Origin: a virus
Virus record (IMG/VR): IMGVR_UViG_3300049489_001113
Location: 1-64,000 of that record
Length of the DNA stretch: 64,000 bases
Reading direction: 5' to 3' (one strand)
Every line of letters begins with the position of its first letter. Position 1 is the first letter of the stretch. The notes beneath the pieces are model-generated. The model worked only from the letters and a program-made list of their open reading frames with translations, made no database searches and was not told the DNA's origin. This document shows positions 1-42,835 of this stretch, piece by piece. The translations under genes were made by a program, and so were the position numbers.

Positions 1-663
1 GGGACCATCGACCCCGACAAGGTTCGGAAGGACAAGGCCAGCGTGATCTCCCGGGAGAAGGTGCTCGAATGGTACGAGCCCGACCCGATGGGACTTGAAG
101 GCGTGGGTGGACTCGGGGGCCTGAAGGACTGGCTTCGGCAACGACGCACGGCATTCTCACCCGCCGCCCGGGACTACGGGTTGCCGACCCCAAAGGGGGT
201 CATGCTCGTGGGCATCCCCGGCTGTCTGCATGGAGACACCGTGATTCACGATCCGGTGACTGGGACGACCGAGACGGTGCGAGAGCGGCACCAACGAGGG
301 GAGCGTTTCCACGTGTGGTCGCTACACCCGAACGGTGAACCTGTGATTGCCGCGGCGGAACGTCCACATAAGTACGACCCGGCACAGATGGTCGAGATCG
401 AATTCGAAAACGGTGAGACGATCCGCGTCACCCTTGGACACCGTTTCTGGGACGGGGAGAAGTGGATCACTGCTTCCGAGGTTTACGAGCGGCTGCAGCG
501 ATCCGAGCCCGTCCTTCTCCCGACCAATGCGGACACCGACCTTGCAGTTCGTGCCGAAGATGCTCTCCGTTGGTCTGAAACAACTCCAGGTTCTCTGGTC
601 GATTGTCGGAGCGATCTCCGTTCCTGTGGTGCACCACCTCCCCTGGTCGAAGACGACGATTGA
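1..663 (+). CDS. Ycf46-like AAA+ ATPase, N-terminal part (5' partial) fused to split-intein N-half (IntN from Cys at 223)
   Basis: VGGLGGLKDWL...YGLPTPKGVMLVGIPG is a Ycf46-like AAA up to the middle of Walker A. It continues as CLHGDTVI (intein block A) and IRVTLGHRFW (block B, TxxH). Frame is open from base 1. Confidence 0.9.
   Translation, partial: GTIDPDKVRKDKASVISREKVLEWYEPDPMGLEGVGGLGGLKDWLRQRRTAFSPAARDYGLPTPKGVMLVGIPGCLHGDTVIHDPVTGTTETVRERHQRGERFHVWSLHPNGEPVIAAAERPHKYDPAQMVEIEFENGETIRVTLGHRFWDGEKWITASEVYERLQRSEPVLLPTNADTDLAVRAEDALRWSETTPGSLVDCRSDLRSCGAPPPLVEDDD
223..663 (+). mobile_element. Split intein N-half (IntN)
   Basis: Cys1 at 223, blocks A and B present, stop at 663 with no blocks F/G. 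Confidence 0.85.
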
Positions 664-1129
664 GCACCGTCTCCATGACGAGACGGTGCTCTCGGACACA
701 GCCACTCCTACGCCCAGCTTCGGGGTGACCAGGCATCCACAACAACACGTACCCACTCTTGTCGATTCGTCGCCCACCGCGCCAAGCCGTGTTGCCGGAG
801 CCCGCCGATCTCTCTGCTGTGAAGCGCGCATCGGCTACAGTACCCCCGGCACTGCGGATCGCATCGGCGACACGGTGTGTGCTTGAGCTGAGACGTGCCG
901 CAACCACCCCGAGCGTTAGGCCCGTCTCGTAAAGTGCTCGAGCTTCCAAGGCACGAGACTGCGTCCACCGCTGGTTGCGACTTCCCCAACCCAGTCGACG
1001 ACGGTAGTTGTTGATCGTTGCGAGGCTCACCTTGAAACGCTTCGCCAGATCCGCCAGCTCTACCTCCCCTTGGAGGTAGGCATCCCGCAAGTTGGCAATC
1101 TCGTCGTCCGTCAGGCAACGCGGGGCCAT
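467..1129 (-). CDS. HNH homing endonuclease with N-terminal HTH-like segments
   Basis: GYVLLWMPGHP...EHRLVMETVLNRRLRPGEVVHHRNGDRSDNRPENL; ATG at 1129. Confidence 0.9.
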   Translation of the reverse strand: MAPRCLTDDEIANLRDAYLQGEVELADLAKRFKVSLATINNYRRRLGWGSRNQRWTQSRALEARALYETGLTLGVVAARLSSSTHRVADAIRSAGGTVADARFTAERSAGSGNTAWRGGRRIDKSGYVLLWMPGHPEAGRRSGCVREHRLVMETVLNRRLRPGEVVHHRNGDRSDNRPENLELFQTNGEHLRHELQGRCPHWSGEGRARIAAAARKPRKQ

Positions 1130-1182
1130 ACTTACTCCTGGGTTACACGGTATACCTAACACTAAACAAAGAGGTCGTCAAC

Positions 1183-1293
1183 ATGGACAAGATCGCAGTT
1201 CGATCCGTGAAGCTCGTGGATGTCGAGCCCTACTACGACTTTCACGTCCCTGTGTTCAACAACTATTGGGCGCATGGCGTGTGGCACCACAAC
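1183..1293 (+). mobile_element. Split intein C-half (IntC)
   Basis: Ends His-Asn at 1293; Thr is the +1 residue. Confidence 0.88.
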
Positions 1294-2010
1294 ACCGGAA
1301 AGAGCCTCGCCGCCAAGGCCATCGCCACCACGTGGGGTATGCCCCTGCTCCGCCTCGATCTCGGGGCGCTCAAGTCGAAGTGGGTGGGTGAGTCGGAAGC
1401 GAACATCCGGAAGGCGCTACGGGTCGCCGAGTCGGTCGCACCGTGCATCCTGTGGTGCGACGAGATCGAGAAGAGCCTGGACGGTGCGACGAGTGGAGCC
1501 GCCGACGGTGGGGTGTCCGCCGACACGCTCGGAACCATCCTCACCTTCATGCAAGAACGACAGGGCGCCGTGTTCGTCCTGGCCACGGCCAACGACGTGA
1601 GCAAGCTACCGCCCGAGCTTCTCCGCAAGGGACGGTTCGACGAGATGTTCTTCGTCGACCTCCCGAAGTTCAACGAGCGGCGAGAGGTGGCGGCGGTCAC
1701 GCTGCGCAGGTTCAAGCGTGACCCCGACGGGTTCGACCTCGACGCCATAGCCTCAGCGACCGACGAGTTCACCGGCGCCGAGATCGCCGCGACCGTGCCG
1801 GAAGCCTTGTTCTCCGCCTTCGCCGCCTCCCGAGAGGTGACGACCGAGGACATCGTGGCGAGCGCCCGCACCGTGGTTCCCCTGGCGAAGAGCGCCAGCG
1901 AGAAGATCAAGGCACTCCGCACGTGGGCGCAGGGACGGTGCCGACCGGCCGCGCCGCCCACCCAGGACACCGAGGCGATCCCCGGGTTGGGGCGCGCCAT
2001 CATCGAGTGA
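1183..2010 (+). CDS. Split-intein C-half (37 aa) fused to C-terminal part of the AAA+ ATPase
   Basis: YYDFHVPVFNNYWAHGVWHHN (blocks F/G), then TGKS completing Walker A, Walker B ILWCDEIEK and SRH motif LPPELLRKGRFDE. Has its own GAGG RBS. Confidence 0.92.
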   Translation: MDKIAVRSVKLVDVEPYYDFHVPVFNNYWAHGVWHHNTGKSLAAKAIATTWGMPLLRLDLGALKSKWVGESEANIRKALRVAESVAPCILWCDEIEKSLDGATSGAADGGVSADTLGTILTFMQERQGAVFVLATANDVSKLPPELLRKGRFDEMFFVDLPKFNERREVAAVTLRRFKRDPDGFDLDAIASATDEFTGAEIAATVPEALFSAFAASREVTTEDIVASARTVVPLAKSASEKIKALRTWAQGRCRPAAPPTQDTEAIPGLGRAIIE

Positions 2011-2044: not shown

Positions 2045-2074
2045 TTGACATGTGCATGGTGCATATGTCATAGT
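2045..2074 (+). promoter_or_regulatory. sigma70-like promoter with overlapping inverted repeat
   Basis: TTGACA-N18-CATAGT; TGACATGTGCA-tgg-TGCATATGTCA is a 1-mismatch palindrome. Confidence 0.5.
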
Positions 2075-2095: not shown

Positions 2096-2923
2096 ATGAC
2101 GATCAAGATCAAGCCTGGGTTGCTCGTGAGCCTGTCCGTCCGCTCCCGTGGTGGGGTCACCTACCAGAAGAAGGACCTCCTCCGCACCGTCGAGGAGGCC
2201 ACCGAGGTGAAGGCGTGGGAGACGACGCGCATCATCGCCGACACCGAGGAGCACGAGCGCGCCACCAAGGTGCGGGGGGCGGCACGCTCCACCATCGCCA
2301 AGGTGTGCACGCACTCCGCCTTCGGGCTGCTCTGCCCCGAGGCGGACGAGTCCAACCTGGACGCGGCCATCGCCGCCGCCCGGAAGCTGGCCGAGGAGTT
2401 CAACGCCACGGCGAAGCACACGCAACTGGGGGTGTACGTCCTGAAAGGACGAGTCGCCGCTACCGACGCCGAGGCGGCCGCCGCCATCGCCGACGAGGTG
2501 AAGGGGCTGCTCGCCGAGATGGAACGGGCGTGCAAGGCCGCCGATGTCGAGGCCATCCGCGAGGCGGCGAGCCGAGCGAAGGGGCTCGGGGAAGTGCTCG
2601 ACGGACCCGCCGCCTACACGGTGGGGGAGGCGGTGAAGGCCGCCCGAGCGGTGGCCCGTGCCGTGGTCAAGCGGGTGGAGAAGGAAGGCGAGAGCGCCGA
2701 GCAGGTGCTCCGCACGATCTCCCTCGCCCCCATCGAGGTGGCTCGGTTCATGTTCGAGGACGACACGCCCGCCACCACGGTCGAGGGAACCGAGCTTCCG
2801 GCGGTGGATGTGCGCCGCTTCACCGACGACATGGGTGGGGATCCCGAGCCCACCGTGGACGAGCCTTCCACGGGAGAGGTGAAGGTCGCCGCCATCGACA
2901 CGCAGCCCATGATGGAGGTGTGA
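2096..2923 (+). CDS. Hypothetical helical protein (companion of the AAA ATPase)
   Basis: AAGGGG RBS, GC3-rich codons, 275 aa. Confidence 0.75.
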   Translation: MTIKIKPGLLVSLSVRSRGGVTYQKKDLLRTVEEATEVKAWETTRIIADTEEHERATKVRGAARSTIAKVCTHSAFGLLCPEADESNLDAAIAAARKLAEEFNATAKHTQLGVYVLKGRVAATDAEAAAAIADEVKGLLAEMERACKAADVEAIREAASRAKGLGEVLDGPAAYTVGEAVKAARAVARAVVKRVEKEGESAEQVLRTISLAPIEVARFMFEDDTPATTVEGTELPAVDVRRFTDDMGGDPEPTVDEPSTGEVKVAAIDTQPMMEV

Positions 2924-14635: not shown

Positions 14636-16090
14636 TCAGGACTTGTCTCCGGGTTCGACCGGCACGGGCTCGGCGGTGCGGACCGTGCGGATGGGTGGTT
14701 CGATGTCGACGACGTCGATCGTGCGCACCGGGGTGGCGGCCCGCTCGACGACACCCTCGCGCGCGTTCGAGATCAGGGAACCGAAGACACGGGAGATCAC
14801 CCCCTGCCCCTTCGCCGTGACGGTGACCTCGGCGGTGGGGGTGGTCAGCTTCTGCAGGCTCTCGAGCAGGCCCATGAACATCTGGATGTTCTGCGACACG
14901 TCGCGGGTGAGGAACCCCCCGTTGAGCCGCTCCACCATGGCCGCGAACTGGACGCGGTCGAGCTGCAGCGCAAGCAGATCCTTGACCGCGGCCATCACGT
15001 CGTCGCGCCCCTCGATGGGGCGTAGCTGGCTGAGGGTACACTCCCCGCCGGGGCGGTAGACTGGGCACTTGTCGGACACGGCACACGAGTCGCAGTACCG
15101 ACCCACCTGCAGGGCCGGGGATGCCTGCCTGCTGTTGGTGAGATCCCCGGCGAACGTGCCGGTGTTCCCGCCGACGACGAGGGCCGTGCGGTTGGACTCG
15201 CGCCGCCGGGCGACAAGCTCCCGCTTCTCCTGGTCGGAGAGCCAGTAGGCGTTGCCCACCTGCGTCTCCATGTGCCTCTGGAGCTGCACCCACTGGAGTG
15301 CGTTCCAGCGGTCGACCGCCCACCCGTCGAGACGGCGGAGGTCGTCGCTCAGGTTGTACTTGTCGGCCTCCTCCCACACGTTGCGCCGCTCGAACTCGCG
15401 AAGGCGGAGCTGGTTCTTCGCGTCGGCGTCGCCGGCCTCCGGCTGAGGGAACACCTCGAGGCGCGTGGCCGCCATGTTCCAGAAGTAGATGTGCCCCCAC
15501 CGACCCCAGGCGGTCCACGTGGTTGAGTCGACGGCAAACCACGGAAGCTGAAGCACGGTGGCCCGGGTGACGCCGCGCCCGTACACACGGACGCCGACGT
15601 CCCGCAGAGCGGACAGGTTCTCACGGAAGAACTTCGAGTAGTACGAGTCGGCCTCGCCGGCGGTGAGGCCGATGTGCTTGTACGTCCCGTCGAGGATCTC
15701 GTCCTCGCCGTGGAACATCACGACCAGTCGGTCGAGGAGCCCAGCGTCCTTCCACCTGTTGCGCCACGCCCGGATCGTGTCGAGCTGCACGTAGGCGATC
15801 GGGTCGAACTCGACCCACACGTCGAGCTGTTCCTTGTGTCGGTCGACGAAGCGCACGTACCGTTCGAGGTAGTCCTCGAGGTTGTCGGCGTCATCACCGG
15901 AGACAGACTGGGCACCGGAGTCGAGCATGACCCAGGCGCCCGCCTGCTTGTAGGTGTTGAGCAGATCGTCGACCTCCCCCCTCTTGCGCCGCGCGAGCTG
16001 CGCGTAGGGCAGACACACCGCCCGCACACCGAGGGACGCGAGCGCGTCCGCCCAGTTCTGCCTCGCCATCGCCGAGAGAGCGACGAACAT
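14636..16090 (-). CDS. tRNA-guanine-transglycosylase-like TIM-barrel protein with C-terminal Cys4 domain
   Basis: VMLDSGAQS, VEFD, VMFH, FAVDSTTW..WGRWG; CDSC-x5-C-x8-C. Confidence 0.6.
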   Translation of the reverse strand: MFVALSAMARQNWADALASLGVRAVCLPYAQLARRKRGEVDDLLNTYKQAGAWVMLDSGAQSVSGDDADNLEDYLERYVRFVDRHKEQLDVWVEFDPIAYVQLDTIRAWRNRWKDAGLLDRLVVMFHGEDEILDGTYKHIGLTAGEADSYYSKFFRENLSALRDVGVRVYGRGVTRATVLQLPWFAVDSTTWTAWGRWGHIYFWNMAATRLEVFPQPEAGDADAKNQLRLREFERRNVWEEADKYNLSDDLRRLDGWAVDRWNALQWVQLQRHMETQVGNAYWLSDQEKRELVARRRESNRTALVVGGNTGTFAGDLTNSRQASPALQVGRYCDSCAVSDKCPVYRPGGECTLSQLRPIEGRDDVMAAVKDLLALQLDRVQFAAMVERLNGGFLTRDVSQNIQMFMGLLESLQKLTTPTAEVTVTAKGQGVISRVFGSLISNAREGVVERAATPVRTIDVVDIEPPIRTVRTAEPVPVEPGDKS

Positions 16091-16091
16091 G

Positions 16092-16397
16092 TCAGCCCGT
16101 CTTCCTCTGCTGCGCCTGAAGGACGGCAGCCTGTTGCATGACGGACGCCGCACGCATCTGCTGCGCGATCTGCATCTGCCGTCCGGTCACAGCCGCGGCG
16201 ACCTTCTGTACGAGCGCCTCGGTCGACGCCCGGTGCAACAGGTAGTCCACGTCGTGGACGTTCACGTCCCGCTTGGATTCTCCCGACTGCTTCACACGGA
16301 TGGTCCCGTCTTCGAGCATGTCGATGACGATGCCGAAAGCGACCTCCGGTGCCTTGGGCTGTGCGGTCTGCTGGTCCTGTTCGTTGGTCTGTTCCAC
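16092..16397 (-). CDS. Hypothetical protein
   Basis: AAGGGAG RBS; Gln-rich C-terminus. Confidence 0.6.
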   Translation of the reverse strand: MEQTNEQDQQTAQPKAPEVAFGIVIDMLEDGTIRVKQSGESKRDVNVHDVDYLLHRASTEALVQKVAAAVTGRQMQIAQQMRAASVMQQAAVLQAQQRKTG

Positions 16398-40437: not shown

Positions 40438-41000
40438 CAGCGCAACCCGAAGTCGCGGAGAATGACCGCGGTGGCTTCCTCGAGGCGCACCAGATCTCCG
40501 ACGTTCATGATCGTGGCGTCGGCCTCGATCGATCGCTGCTCCGTCTCCGAGGCGTGCCCGTCGCCGTCGTACCCGGGGCGAGACACACGCACCAACTTCC
40601 CTCCGATTGAGCGGATCATCTCCGCCTCGTTCGCAAACCACACATCCGGCACGAGCCACAGCCGCACACCCGCGTCGCCTTCGATCCTGCACCGCAGGTT
40701 CTTCACCCACACCTGCGGGTCGATGCTCCGCCCGACCTCGGTGCCGAGGAGCTGCATCAGTTGACGCGGGGTCTTGTCCCAGCGAGGGTCCACGACCTCC
40801 TTGTGCTTGGGGTTGTGCATCTGCGCGTGCGACAGGTCGAAGATGATCTGCGCCGCCTCCTTCAATGGGGCAGCGAAGTGCGTCACCTGCACGCCGTCAT
40901 CACCTGGCCGGTGCGTGAGCAGTTTCTTCGCGAGGCTGGCGAAGGTATCCTTGCCCGCCCCCTTGCTCCCAAGGATCCCGATCACACGAACGCTCATCAC
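40437..41000 (-). CDS. Deoxynucleoside monophosphate kinase
   Basis: GSKGAGKDT, FAAPLK, TPRQLMQLLGTEVGR, DVWFANEA, HASE. Confidence 0.9.
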   Translation of the reverse strand: MMSVRVIGILGSKGAGKDTFASLAKKLLTHRPGDDGVQVTHFAAPLKEAAQIIFDLSHAQMHNPKHKEVVDPRWDKTPRQLMQLLGTEVGRSIDPQVWVKNLRCRIEGDAGVRLWLVPDVWFANEAEMIRSIGGKLVRVSRPGYDGDGHASETEQRSIEADATIMNVGDLVRLEEATAVILRDFGLR

Positions 41001-42835
41001 GACACCCTCCCTTGCGCGAACAACCCGAGCGTACGGGGGAACGCGTCTGACAAGATCCGTTGCACGACAAGGGCGAACTGCCTGATCTCAAACTGCGCGG
41101 CCTCATCGGTACGCAGCGCGAGGAAGGCGACCCACCCACGCAGGTTCGACGTCGCGCGCATGCGCGAGTACCGGCCCACGGGAAGGATCACACGCGCGAG
41201 TTCCTTCGGTACCCCATCGGAGAGGGCCGACTGATAGTCATCCTCGAGCTGCGCGTAGCGGGCCACCAACTTACGGCGGTACGCCTCCGCCGAGACCGCA
41301 TCGAGTTCGCGCGCACCGTGGATGCGGTTGGCCTGCTTGTTCGAGCCCGTCGCGTTCACCGTCAGCCGCTCGACGGTCGGGACGTAGTTCACGTCCGGCA
41401 GCGGGGTGTACCTGGCCGACATCTCGTTGTAGCCGAAGGGAACCCTGTGGCGGTGCCACTCGCGGAACACGAAGATGGGTGCCTGAACCTCGACGGTGAT
41501 CCCCGCCATCTCGAACGGCGTGTTCCCAGAGAGGACAACTTTCCCCCCGCGTCGCACAACCAGTACCCCAGTGCGGGTGTTTGCGCAGTACACGGTGCCC
41601 TCGTATGGAACCCACGACGTATTCACACGGCTCTGATTGATCACTGGCTCCGTCATCCGCGACAAGAACATCATCCGGTAGAGACCAACGTCCGATCTCC
41701 CAACCTGAACACACTCCCCGGCGTGGATCGCGATGCGTTGAACGGCATCTGCGAGCGGCGCCGACATGGTCGTGTACTCCCAGGCTCCGCGCTTCTCTGA
41801 ACCGTCCGAGTTGCGCAACCCATCAAGCAAGGCAGCCGCATCATCAGCACCAAGGTCCATCAGGAAGTCTGGAATACACTTGTCTCCATCTGGTGTATAG
41901 AACCACCGCCGAAATGCGGAGGTCAGCCCGTCGGCGCGCACAACACACGAAGACAACTCGTCGCAGGCCCAGCCTACCCCCGCGCACACTTCCTTCAGGT
42001 ACGCGATCTTCCGCTTCTTCCGAAGATGGAACTGGATCGAGTTGCGAACGGTGCCGTCGTCACGCCCAGCGAACCCATCACCAAGGAAGAACCCAATCAA
42101 CCGCAACAGCTCGCGCGAATCGTCGTGCTGCGGGAACCATTCCGATAAGTCCACATATGACCGCTTGCGCCGTGCATGCTTTCGATAGCGCACCATCGAA
42201 CGGAACCCAAGCTCCTCCACGGTCTCCAGGCGCCATGGAGACCACACCTGTCGGTTCTCGCCAACCACACTCACCTTCGTCTGCACGTACATGCGGTGCC
42301 CCGGCGTTACGAGCAAGTCCACTCCGCCATGATCGACACGGTACATGTTCCCTTTGAACGGATCGGCAACGAGCTGGAGCGGGGCCTCATACACCAGGGA
42401 CTCCGCAACAGGGTCCCAGCAACCGAGCAGGTCATCCTTCCGTACGTCTGGCCACGTCACGAAACCGCGCCGAGTCAGAACCTCGGTCGCCGCATCGTAG
42501 CAGTGGTGTTTGTGCTCCCACAGGTAGCGAAGGAGCTTTTCATCACCGGGCTTCGCGTCTTCGATTGCGACGTGCGCGCCACCGCGTTCCGTCGGGCAGT
42601 GGGTGTGTGGTAGACGACCTGTTGTACTCGACACGCCGCACGAGCAGCGAACCTCGCCCCATCCCTGGAACCCCTTGTTCGTGCTCATTCGTGCGGCCTC
42701 GATGATCTGCTCCTCCGAGCCCCACATCTCGATGAGCTTCACGAATCCGTGGTCGAGTACGGGAATCGGCTCCTCGTACTTCTCCATCAACTGCGTCTTG
42801 TGCAAGTCCACCCTCATGTTGTCGTTCTCCCTCAC
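40997..42835 (-). CDS. thyX: FAD-dependent thymidylate synthase containing an intein
   Basis: VLDHGFVKL, AARMS, H|TPFE, PIFVFREWHRHR, NEMSARY, ELARVILP, AQFEIR. Confidence 0.95.
   Translation of the reverse strand: MRENDNMRVDLHKTQLMEKYEEPIPVLDHGFVKLIEMWGSEEQIIEAARMSTNKGFQGWGEVRCSCGVSSTTGRLPHTHCPTERGGAHVAIEDAKPGDEKLLRYLWEHKHHCYDAATEVLTRRGFVTWPDVRKDDLLGCWDPVAESLVYEAPLQLVADPFKGNMYRVDHGGVDLLVTPGHRMYVQTKVSVVGENRQVWSPWRLETVEELGFRSMVRYRKHARRKRSYVDLSEWFPQHDDSRELLRLIGFFLGDGFAGRDDGTVRNSIQFHLRKKRKIAYLKEVCAGVGWACDELSSCVVRADGLTSAFRRWFYTPDGDKCIPDFLMDLGADDAAALLDGLRNSDGSEKRGAWEYTTMSAPLADAVQRIAIHAGECVQVGRSDVGLYRMMFLSRMTEPVINQSRVNTSWVPYEGTVYCANTRTGVLVVRRGGKVVLSGNTPFEMAGITVEVQAPIFVFREWHRHRVPFGYNEMSARYTPLPDVNYVPTVERLTVNATGSNKQANRIHGARELDAVSAEAYRRKLVARYAQLEDDYQSALSDGVPKELARVILPVGRYSRMRATSNLRGWVAFLALRTDEAAQFEIRQFALVVQRILSDAFPRTLGLFAQGRVS
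41522..42502 (-). mobile_element. Contiguous intein with LAGLIDADG-type endonuclease (327 aa)
   Basis: CYDAATEVLT, VTPGHRM, LIGFFLGDG, LLDGLRNSDG, VYC...SGN|T. Confidence 0.92.

Follow-up and report, generated by a model that had tools for sequence, protein, structure and literature searches.

The question raised by positions 1–2010 of the viral record IMGVR_UViG_3300049489_001113 is how an AAA+ ATPase can be encoded in two pieces interrupted within the phosphate-binding loop (P-loop, or Walker A motif), and whether these pieces may still give rise to a single protein. The analysed stretch of 64,000 nucleotides (nt), referred to below as the window, comprises the first 64 kb (bases 1–64000) of a 100,478-bp IMG/VR viral contig with a CheckV completeness estimate of 97%; it probably originates from a freshwater-sediment metagenome. 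Positions 1–2010 most probably represent an AAA+ ATPase encoded as two genes, the products of which would be joined by a class-1 split intein, consisting of an N-terminal (IntN) and a C-terminal (IntC) part, together with a homing endonuclease gene of the HNH type on the opposite strand. The conserved residues and the structural model point to a split intein that is real and probably functional; trans-splicing and HNH-driven homing are inferred from conservation, i.e., indirectly.

Organization of the Locus

The following features were located in the region (aa, amino acids; pLDDT, predicted local distance difference test; HTH, helix–turn–helix):

1–222, plus strand: 3′ part of the N-extein (AAA+ region upstream of Walker A, ending ...KGVMLVGIPG), assigned by identity to Corndog gp96; cut by the contig start.
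223–540, plus strand: IntN, ~105 aa, with Cys1 (CLHGDT, block A) and TLGH (block B), assigned by TIGR01445, relatives, alignment A1 and pLDDT 91–98.
541–663, plus strand: 41-aa tail of the N-half reading frame with the TGA at 661–663, complementary to the 3′-terminal part of the HNH gene; disordered in the predicted structure.
664–1182, plus strand: linker once read in the intein frame, now decayed and containing five more in-frame TGA codons (676, 820, 889, 1012 and 1033).
467–1129, minus strand: intact HNH homing endonuclease gene, 220 aa, with an N-terminal HTH-like region, assigned by PF13392 and alignment A2.
1135–1139, minus strand: Shine–Dalgarno sequence AGGAG, 5 nt before the ATG of the HNH gene, read from the sequence.
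1168–1174, plus strand: Shine–Dalgarno-like sequence AAAGAGG, 8 nt before the ATG of IntC, read from the sequence.
1183–1293, plus strand: IntC, 37 aa, Met followed by blocks F and G (YYDFHVP...NYWAHGVWHHN), assigned by alignment and pLDDT 95–98.
1294–2010, plus strand: C-extein from Thr+1 (TGKS...), with the AAA domain, Walker B, the lid and the TGA at 2008–2010, assigned by PF00004 and Corndog gp96.

No stop interrupts frame +1 from base 1 up to the TGA at 661–663; it encodes ...PKGVMLVGIPG/CLHGDTVIHDP... (here and below, a slash in such strings marks the splice junction), with Cys1 at position 223. A separate open reading frame (ORF) at 1183–2010 begins with ATG and encodes 37 intein residues, ending ...YYDFHVPVFNNYWAHGVWHHN, followed by TGKSLAAK... 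and the terminal TGA; the Asn of ...GVWHHN is residue 37 of this ORF, and the C-extein is encoded from position 1294. IntN and IntC lie in one frame, separated by six TGA stops (661–663, 676, 820, 889, 1012 and 1033). The ORF of the HNH protein runs on the minus strand from the ATG at 1129 to the stop at 469–467, and the 3′ end of the gene overlaps the tail of the N-half ORF by ~194 nt (470–663). A similar tail after IntN is present in a related protein, P0154.

The initial annotation of this DNA described a Walker A intein in two separately initiated pieces, which is confirmed by the stop at 661–663, the ATG at 1183 with its Shine–Dalgarno sequence and the six in-frame stops. The span of 223–663 given there for IntN is correct for the ORF, but IntN proper comprises only ~105 residues (223 to ~540), the remaining 41 belonging to the antisense-encoded tail. 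The HNH gene, placed there between the halves on the opposite strand, is indeed an intact minus-strand gene, but it does not simply lie between them, since it extends into the N-half ORF.

The window starts at base 1 of its IMG/VR contig, and the truncation of the N-extein is thus due to assembly and not to biology. In a second assembly of the same run, a Logan contig reaches 3,344 nt further upstream of the window start. The Logan assembly shows 0 differences from the window over 2,100 nt at a depth of ~26; the run is probably the source sample, and this agreement is a check on the assembler and not on the sample. The missing 5′ part of the AAA gene was not found in the far end of the contig (L003).

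Evidence for a Class-1 Intein

By its sequence and predicted structure, the split element is a genuine class-1 intein with the HINT fold. Intein profile searches, proposed in the initial annotation for both halves, were successful for IntN, which matches TIGR01445 (intein N-terminal splicing region) with 31.6 bits against a curated cut-off of 24.5 over residues 1–75 from the Cys; Pfam Intein_splicing matches IntN only with E 0.09, and IntC gave no significant match.

In 17 aligned relatives (alignment A1), residues C1, T70, H73, D339, H341, H356 and N357 are invariant, as is the IntC stretch Y337–P343. Block A is represented by Cys1 directly after GIPG, and block B, TxxH, by TLGH at intein residues 70–73. 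The Asp and His of block F (D339, H341) are retained, and block G reads ...WHHN/T, with Thr+1 as the nucleophile. The contiguous mini-intein L024 shares 52% identity with the window intein. In the mini-inteins L024, L025 and L034, the junction of the two halves, between blocks B and F, is aligned with the last residues of IntN and the initial Met of IntC.

The AlphaFold2 model, calculated for the frame read through its stops, has pLDDT values of 91–98 for residues 1–105, 95–98 for residues 321–357 and below 50 for the linker, and IntC packs against IntN in a HINT domain. In the Foldseek search of PDB, the top ~30 matches were all inteins (Ssp DnaB, Mtu RecA, Ssp/Npu DnaE), with E values down to 1.6e-6. 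The HINT domain is split at the same structural position as in the Npu/Ssp DnaE inteins (Foldseek matches 1zd7, 4kl5 and 4qfq), with an IntN of ~100 aa and an IntC of ~36 aa. Unlike the window, the DnaE halves are far apart in cyanobacterial chromosomes, are not accompanied by an endonuclease and have Cys+1; sequence similarity between the window and DnaE is marginal (E ~0.01). A tblastn search of cultured phages with IntN revealed nothing significant.

Host ATPase and Uninterrupted Alleles

Judging from its sequence, the host protein is a phage AAA+ ATPase of the SpoVK/Ycf46/Vps4 type. The C-half matches Pfam AAA PF00004 with E 1.9e-26, and the match of AAA_lid_3 on the C-half is just below the cut-off (26.6 vs. 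27.2). Among annotated proteins, the closest homologue of the host protein is found in cluster O mycobacteriophages: their AAA-ATPase, represented in Corndog by gp96, a protein of 566 aa in one piece; the N-extein is 43% identical to its residues 250–323 and the C-extein 54% identical to its residues 325–555. A search with the N-half as the query found no related locus.

The P-loop of Corndog gp96 is GVSGCGKT, and two uninterrupted viral alleles have the sequences VGLPGTGKSLAAK (L007, containing VGLPGTGKS) and VGVPGCGKS (L006). Joining GIPG with TGKS gives GIPGTGKS, a Walker A motif of the form GxxGxGK[ST], in line with the empty alleles; the rebuilding of this P-loop was proposed in the initial annotation and is borne out by these sequences. 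The P-loops of the empty alleles and of the joined exteins thus place the intein between the fourth and fifth Walker A residues. In mycobacteriophage terminases the 'classic' P-loop intein site is GK/T (PMC5050341), and the site in the window is two residues upstream of it. Matches to L005–L007 seemed to extend into IntC; this extension was rejected, these alleles being intein-free. Among representatives of the AAA host family, 21 long, 7 mini and 6 split forms were found, plus many empty alleles.

The Walker A Intein Lineage

An exhaustive phmmer search with IntN yielded 229 cluster representatives at E ≤ 1e-3, of which 120 reached E ≤ 1e-10; the best 150 of the 229 were classified. Long inteins (200–425 aa) account for 93 of these 150 and mini-inteins (133–196 aa) for 30; IntC was not found by pattern in 17, of which approximately 10 end ~100–165 residues past Cys1, and block A was not located by pattern in the last 10. 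Homologues with a contiguous or an absent intein at this site, suggested as a search target in the initial annotation, were both found, the latter being L006 and L007.

The insertion site is G/[CST]GK[ST] in all 140 proteins in which Cys1 was located by the block-A pattern. The hosts belong to dozens of P-loop families, including AAA+, clamp-loader-like, helicase/primase-like, terminase-like and other proteins. Thr+1 is found in about half of the members and is as frequent as Cys+1.

In-frame endonuclease domains of inteins are normally located where this lineage carries the antisense HNH gene. In every long locus with both ends located and readable DNA, a homologous HNH gene was found on the opposite strand between IntN and IntC, with the shared motifs NPAWKGGR...EHRLVME...EVVHH.NG..DNR.ENL.LF, and the intein frame of these loci contains no stops across the HNH gene. 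The expected number of stops was obtained by resampling the synonymous codons of each HNH gene according to the codon usage of the locus and by within-gene shuffling. Ten independent loci (GC content 0.37–0.69) have 0 stops in the intein frame vs. 3.8–9.4 expected, the probability of 0 stops being ≤0.013 in each locus and <0.001 in most, and the other two sense frames contain 3–15 stops. In the contiguous relatives, judged by these counts, both strands are under selection over the HNH region.

The linker of the window contains 6 stops vs. 6.83 expected, which means that the constraint on the linker is wholly gone here and that it has decayed neutrally. The register of the HNH gene relative to the intein is identical in all loci, including the window, which argues for a single origin of the arrangement. 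As shown by sequence comparison, the window element descends from a lineage specific for G/[CST]GK[ST] and carrying an antisense HNH gene, and the HNH gene of the window is, on the same grounds, an ancestral, co-inherited part of the intein and not a newcomer that fractured the gene.

The HNH gene of the window is intact, and its product is a predicted nuclease: it matches HNH_3 PF13392 with E 3.9e-9 (36.4 bits vs. a cut-off of 24.8), retains 34 of the 34 invariant columns of alignment A2, including EHR, HH.NG, DN..NL.LF and N..H, and is 56% identical to the HNH protein of L021. With the contiguous loci L020, L021, L031 and L067 and the terminase of Pectobacterium phage Ymer, the window shares the site G/[CST]GK[ST], the HNH family and the HNH-to-intein register. 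The four loci also belong to its intein lineage, whereas the splicing domain of Ymer is only distantly related. In these contiguous forms the intein frame has 0 stops and IntC lacks a start of its own, in contrast to the 6 stops and the separate Shine–Dalgarno sequence and ATG of the window.

The Ymer terminase is encoded by CDS0009 of OP748252 (L059, 284–2548, minus strand), a 754-aa 'hypothetical protein' adjoining the portal gene and representing the large terminase. It contains an intein at AGFG/.../TGKS and, on the opposite strand, an intact HNH gene of the same family, neither of which is annotated; the same match was found in related Pectobacterium phages (Abuela, Koroua, Amona and others). 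The HNH protein of the window also matches inside DNA methylase genes of actinophages (mycobacteriophages), e.g., OwlsT2W, Bipolar and Filuzino. These matches probably represent what is called the 'hidden HNH' in the ShiLan insertion element (PMC11855218); if so, nucleases of a single HNH family would seem to be used by insertion elements of several kinds.

Scanning of DNA with a degenerate pattern for YYDFHVP, the IntC motif, revealed 25 true viral loci; chance matches to the 20-nt pattern made up 15 of 40 in this viral scan and 37 of 40 in the genome scan. Only contiguous members were found in the metagenome scan and the genome scan. Loci L028/L036, L048 and L051 contain the IntC motif and long open frames upstream (224–448 aa), with no IntN detected by the block-A pattern; their N-terminal halves may be divergent, or they may be organized differently. 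In the Chloroflexi metagenome-assembled genome CALBSQ01, contigs L083 and L102 carry two host genes with the shared flanks HIHVIGVSG/.../SGKSRFLC, one interrupted by a 158-aa mini form and the other by a 347-aa long form with an antisense HNH gene.

Split Relatives and the Proposed Mechanism

Five other C-halves start with a homologous IntC (P0002–P0005 and P0111), and five other AAA N-halves stop 102–140 residues after Cys1, at differing positions (P0132, P0145, P0154, P0157 and P0169). In the tree of C-exteins, split alleles are scattered among empty ones; 6 changes are needed, of which well-supported branches force at least 2. In the IntN tree, well-supported branches force only 1–2 changes. 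Both trees are too weakly supported for counting independent origins; the scattered position of the split alleles is compatible with horizontal spread as well as with several origins.

The origin of the split form can be traced as follows. In most members of the lineage, the sense frame remains open over the HNH gene, and the intein is translated as a single chain in which ~170–200 residues form a disordered linker. In the window, the read-through constraint on the linker was lost, stops accumulated to the neutral level, and the N-half now ends at 661–663, while the C-half has its own ribosome-binding site and an ATG placed precisely where the first IntC strand begins. Both halves are probably produced from one mRNA, antisense to the HNH gene.

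After translation, IntN and IntC would associate into the HINT fold; Cys1 would then undergo the N–S acyl shift, Thr+1 would perform trans-esterification and Asn37 of IntC would cyclise. Ligation of the exteins would then yield an ATPase with GIPGTGKS as its P-loop. Intein-free alleles are probably cleaved close to their Walker A codons by the HNH nuclease encoded on the other strand, and this cleavage would spread the whole cassette.

The number of stops, taken as a rough clock (6 vs. 6.8 expected), indicates that the split is old and has been kept. A broader reading, offered here tentatively and less probable than not, is that the split intein and the antisense HNH gene act as one cassette, active in homing, by which a P-loop gene is fractured in a single step. 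Such a generalist lineage would hop between unrelated NTPases since its HNH nuclease recognises Walker A DNA, and splits would recur whenever selection for a readable linker lapses.

Alternative Explanations

Several observations weigh against a functional split intein in the window. The N-extein is incomplete in the contig, and an intact full N-half is thus deduced and not seen. No RNA run holding the window sequence was found, and a sigma-70 scan of positions 1–2040 revealed no promoter for the C-half or the HNH gene, a negative that says little in a phage whose host is not known. IntC alone remained below significance in searches with hidden Markov models, because 37 aa is too short for them. 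The chain modelled by AlphaFold2 is an artificial read-through and indicates that the halves are compatible, not that separate chains associate. Finally, the other split forms are derived from gene calls, the split having been read in DNA for the window only, and some of the N-halves ending after IntN could be cut by contig ends.

A decaying pseudogene, in which the intein frame broke, the ATPase died and the halves persist as remnants giving no functional spliced protein, would agree with the six in-frame stops between the halves, with the sequence being found in no RNA run and with the N-extein not being visible in full. The neutral stop density of the linker, however, implies a long time since the break, and the flanks are nonetheless intact: no stop or frameshift occurs in IntN, IntC or ~310 extein codons, all catalytic residues are retained, and the exteins are still 43–54% identical to Corndog gp96. 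In addition, IntC has gained its own Shine–Dalgarno sequence and ATG at the structurally correct position, and the split layout is repeated in at least 5 other diverged alleles, which makes decay an unlikely explanation. It is still harder to reconcile the data with a non-covalent two-chain ATPase, the halves of which would associate via the intein fragments without splicing. The model predicts docking of IntN with IntC at high confidence, and a precedent exists in Aeh1 NrdA, the halves of which are held together by domains derived from a mobile element (PMC3045599). For binding alone, though, the retention of C1, TxxH, the block F Asp/His, the terminal HN and Thr+1 would be unexpected, and a P-loop interrupted by a HINT domain of 140 residues would very likely be unable to bind nucleotides. 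This explanation is therefore considered highly improbable.

Since all six in-frame stops are TGA, and the frame and register are as in the contiguous relatives, the intein could also be thought contiguous after all, with the six TGA codons read through or recoded (e.g., as Trp or Gly) to give an intein of 357 residues. Against this, the AAA and HNH genes end in TGA exactly at the ends of their homologues, which identifies TGA as a true stop in this genome; full-length ORFs, e.g., that of DNA polymerase, are delimited under translation table 11; at 65% GC, out-of-frame stops are expected to be TGA, and the number of stops equals the neutral expectation. Recoding thus has a very slight chance of being correct. 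An assembly or sequencing artefact, in which the halves would truly form one frame and the stops would be errors, was mentioned as a possibility in the initial annotation and might be suspected in a metagenomic contig with a sequence known from one run only. It is practically discarded, as six stops spread over 370 nt leave the frame unchanged and the second assembly of the run is identical over this region. The reading retained is that of two genes joined by a split intein.

Comparison with Known Systems

Fractured genes with split inteins were described by Dassa et al. in 2009 (gp41-1, gp41-8, NrdJ-1, NrdA-2 and IMPDH-1; PMC2677866); they comprise three ORFs on one strand, with spacers of 27–51 nt and nucleases of the GIY-YIG or Vsr-like type (PMC2677866). 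As in those genes, in the window a conserved enzyme gene of phage or environmental DNA is broken at one locus, the halves with IntN and IntC are in the original order, and the split is at the canonical endonuclease-insertion site. In contrast to them, the nuclease of the window is of the HNH type, is encoded on the opposite strand and overlaps the IntN ORF, and the intein belongs to an unrelated sequence lineage, with an AAA+ host and a Walker A site.

Nuclease genes antisense to inteins have also been reported. According to a 2025 preprint (bioRxiv 10.1101/2025.01.02.630785), citing Gorbalenya 1998 and Gogarten 2002, antisense LAGLIDADG genes are present in contiguous inteins of Synechocystis DnaX, a Chloroflexus SpoVR-like protein and an actinophage minor capsid protein, and antisense VSR-like nucleases in contiguous actinophage inteins. 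In that survey of actinophages, HNH domains were found only in frame, and split and mini derivatives are said to need a dedicated search (bioRxiv 10.1101/2025.01.02.630785). The window resembles the published antisense-nuclease inteins in having a separate antisense nuclease gene inside the intein and an in-frame stretch over the nuclease without recognisable structure, and in both cases the intein and the nuclease seem to move as one unit. Unlike those contiguous inteins with LAGLIDADG or VSR-like nucleases, the intein of the window is split, carries an HNH gene and has its frame closed by 6 stops.

Literature searches found no paper on antisense HNH genes in inteins, on the split form of such inteins or on split inteins of AAA proteins. 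The initial annotation considered the locus a new variant on account of the Ycf46-like host, Thr+1 and the antisense HNH gene. The novelty is upheld for the split derivative of an antisense-HNH intein, formed via a lost read-through frame; the Ycf46-like host protein and Thr+1 are ordinary for the lineage and do not constitute it.

Other Features of the Phage

The gene of thymidylate synthase ThyX (41000–42835, minus strand) contains a canonical intein, ...HKHH/CYDAAT ... VLSGN/TPFE, with in-frame LAGLIDADG motifs, and Pfam Thy1 matches the product only at residues 439–600. The phage thus hosts two architecturally different inteins, the LAGLIDADG intein of ThyX and the Walker A split intein. 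The ORF at 14639–16153 (minus strand) has a queuine tRNA-ribosyltransferase-like PHROG match (phrog_887, E 2e-25) and may encode a DpdA-type enzyme, in which case the DNA might carry 7-deazaguanine modifications. Directly 3′ of the AAA gene, at 2045–2074 (plus strand), there is a strong sigma-70-like promoter (TTGACA, 18 nt, CATAGT, extended TG), which precedes a conserved phage gene of unknown function at 2096–2923 (plus strand; phrog_11021).

Implications for Intein Evolution

Walker A inteins with an antisense HNH gene, open on both strands, are common in phage metagenomes. In cultured phages their products are labelled 'hypothetical protein', and the architecture was found in no paper, which indicates that annotation pipelines miss both genes. 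With an IntN of ~105 aa, an IntC of 37 aa, Thr+1 and a sequence far from those of DnaE, gp41-1 and NrdJ-1, the split intein of the window is a reasonable candidate for an orthogonal ligation tool.

The presence of empty, mini, long and split alleles in one AAA host family provides a ready-made comparative system. The locus illustrates a second route to naturally split inteins. No same-strand nuclease gene breaks the intein here; instead, read-through ceases in an intein that already had its nuclease gene on the opposite strand. If the tentative reading of a single homing cassette is true, this route would be unlike the published model of same-strand insertion, and the empty, mini, long and split forms would constitute a natural series for studying the evolution of trans-splicing.

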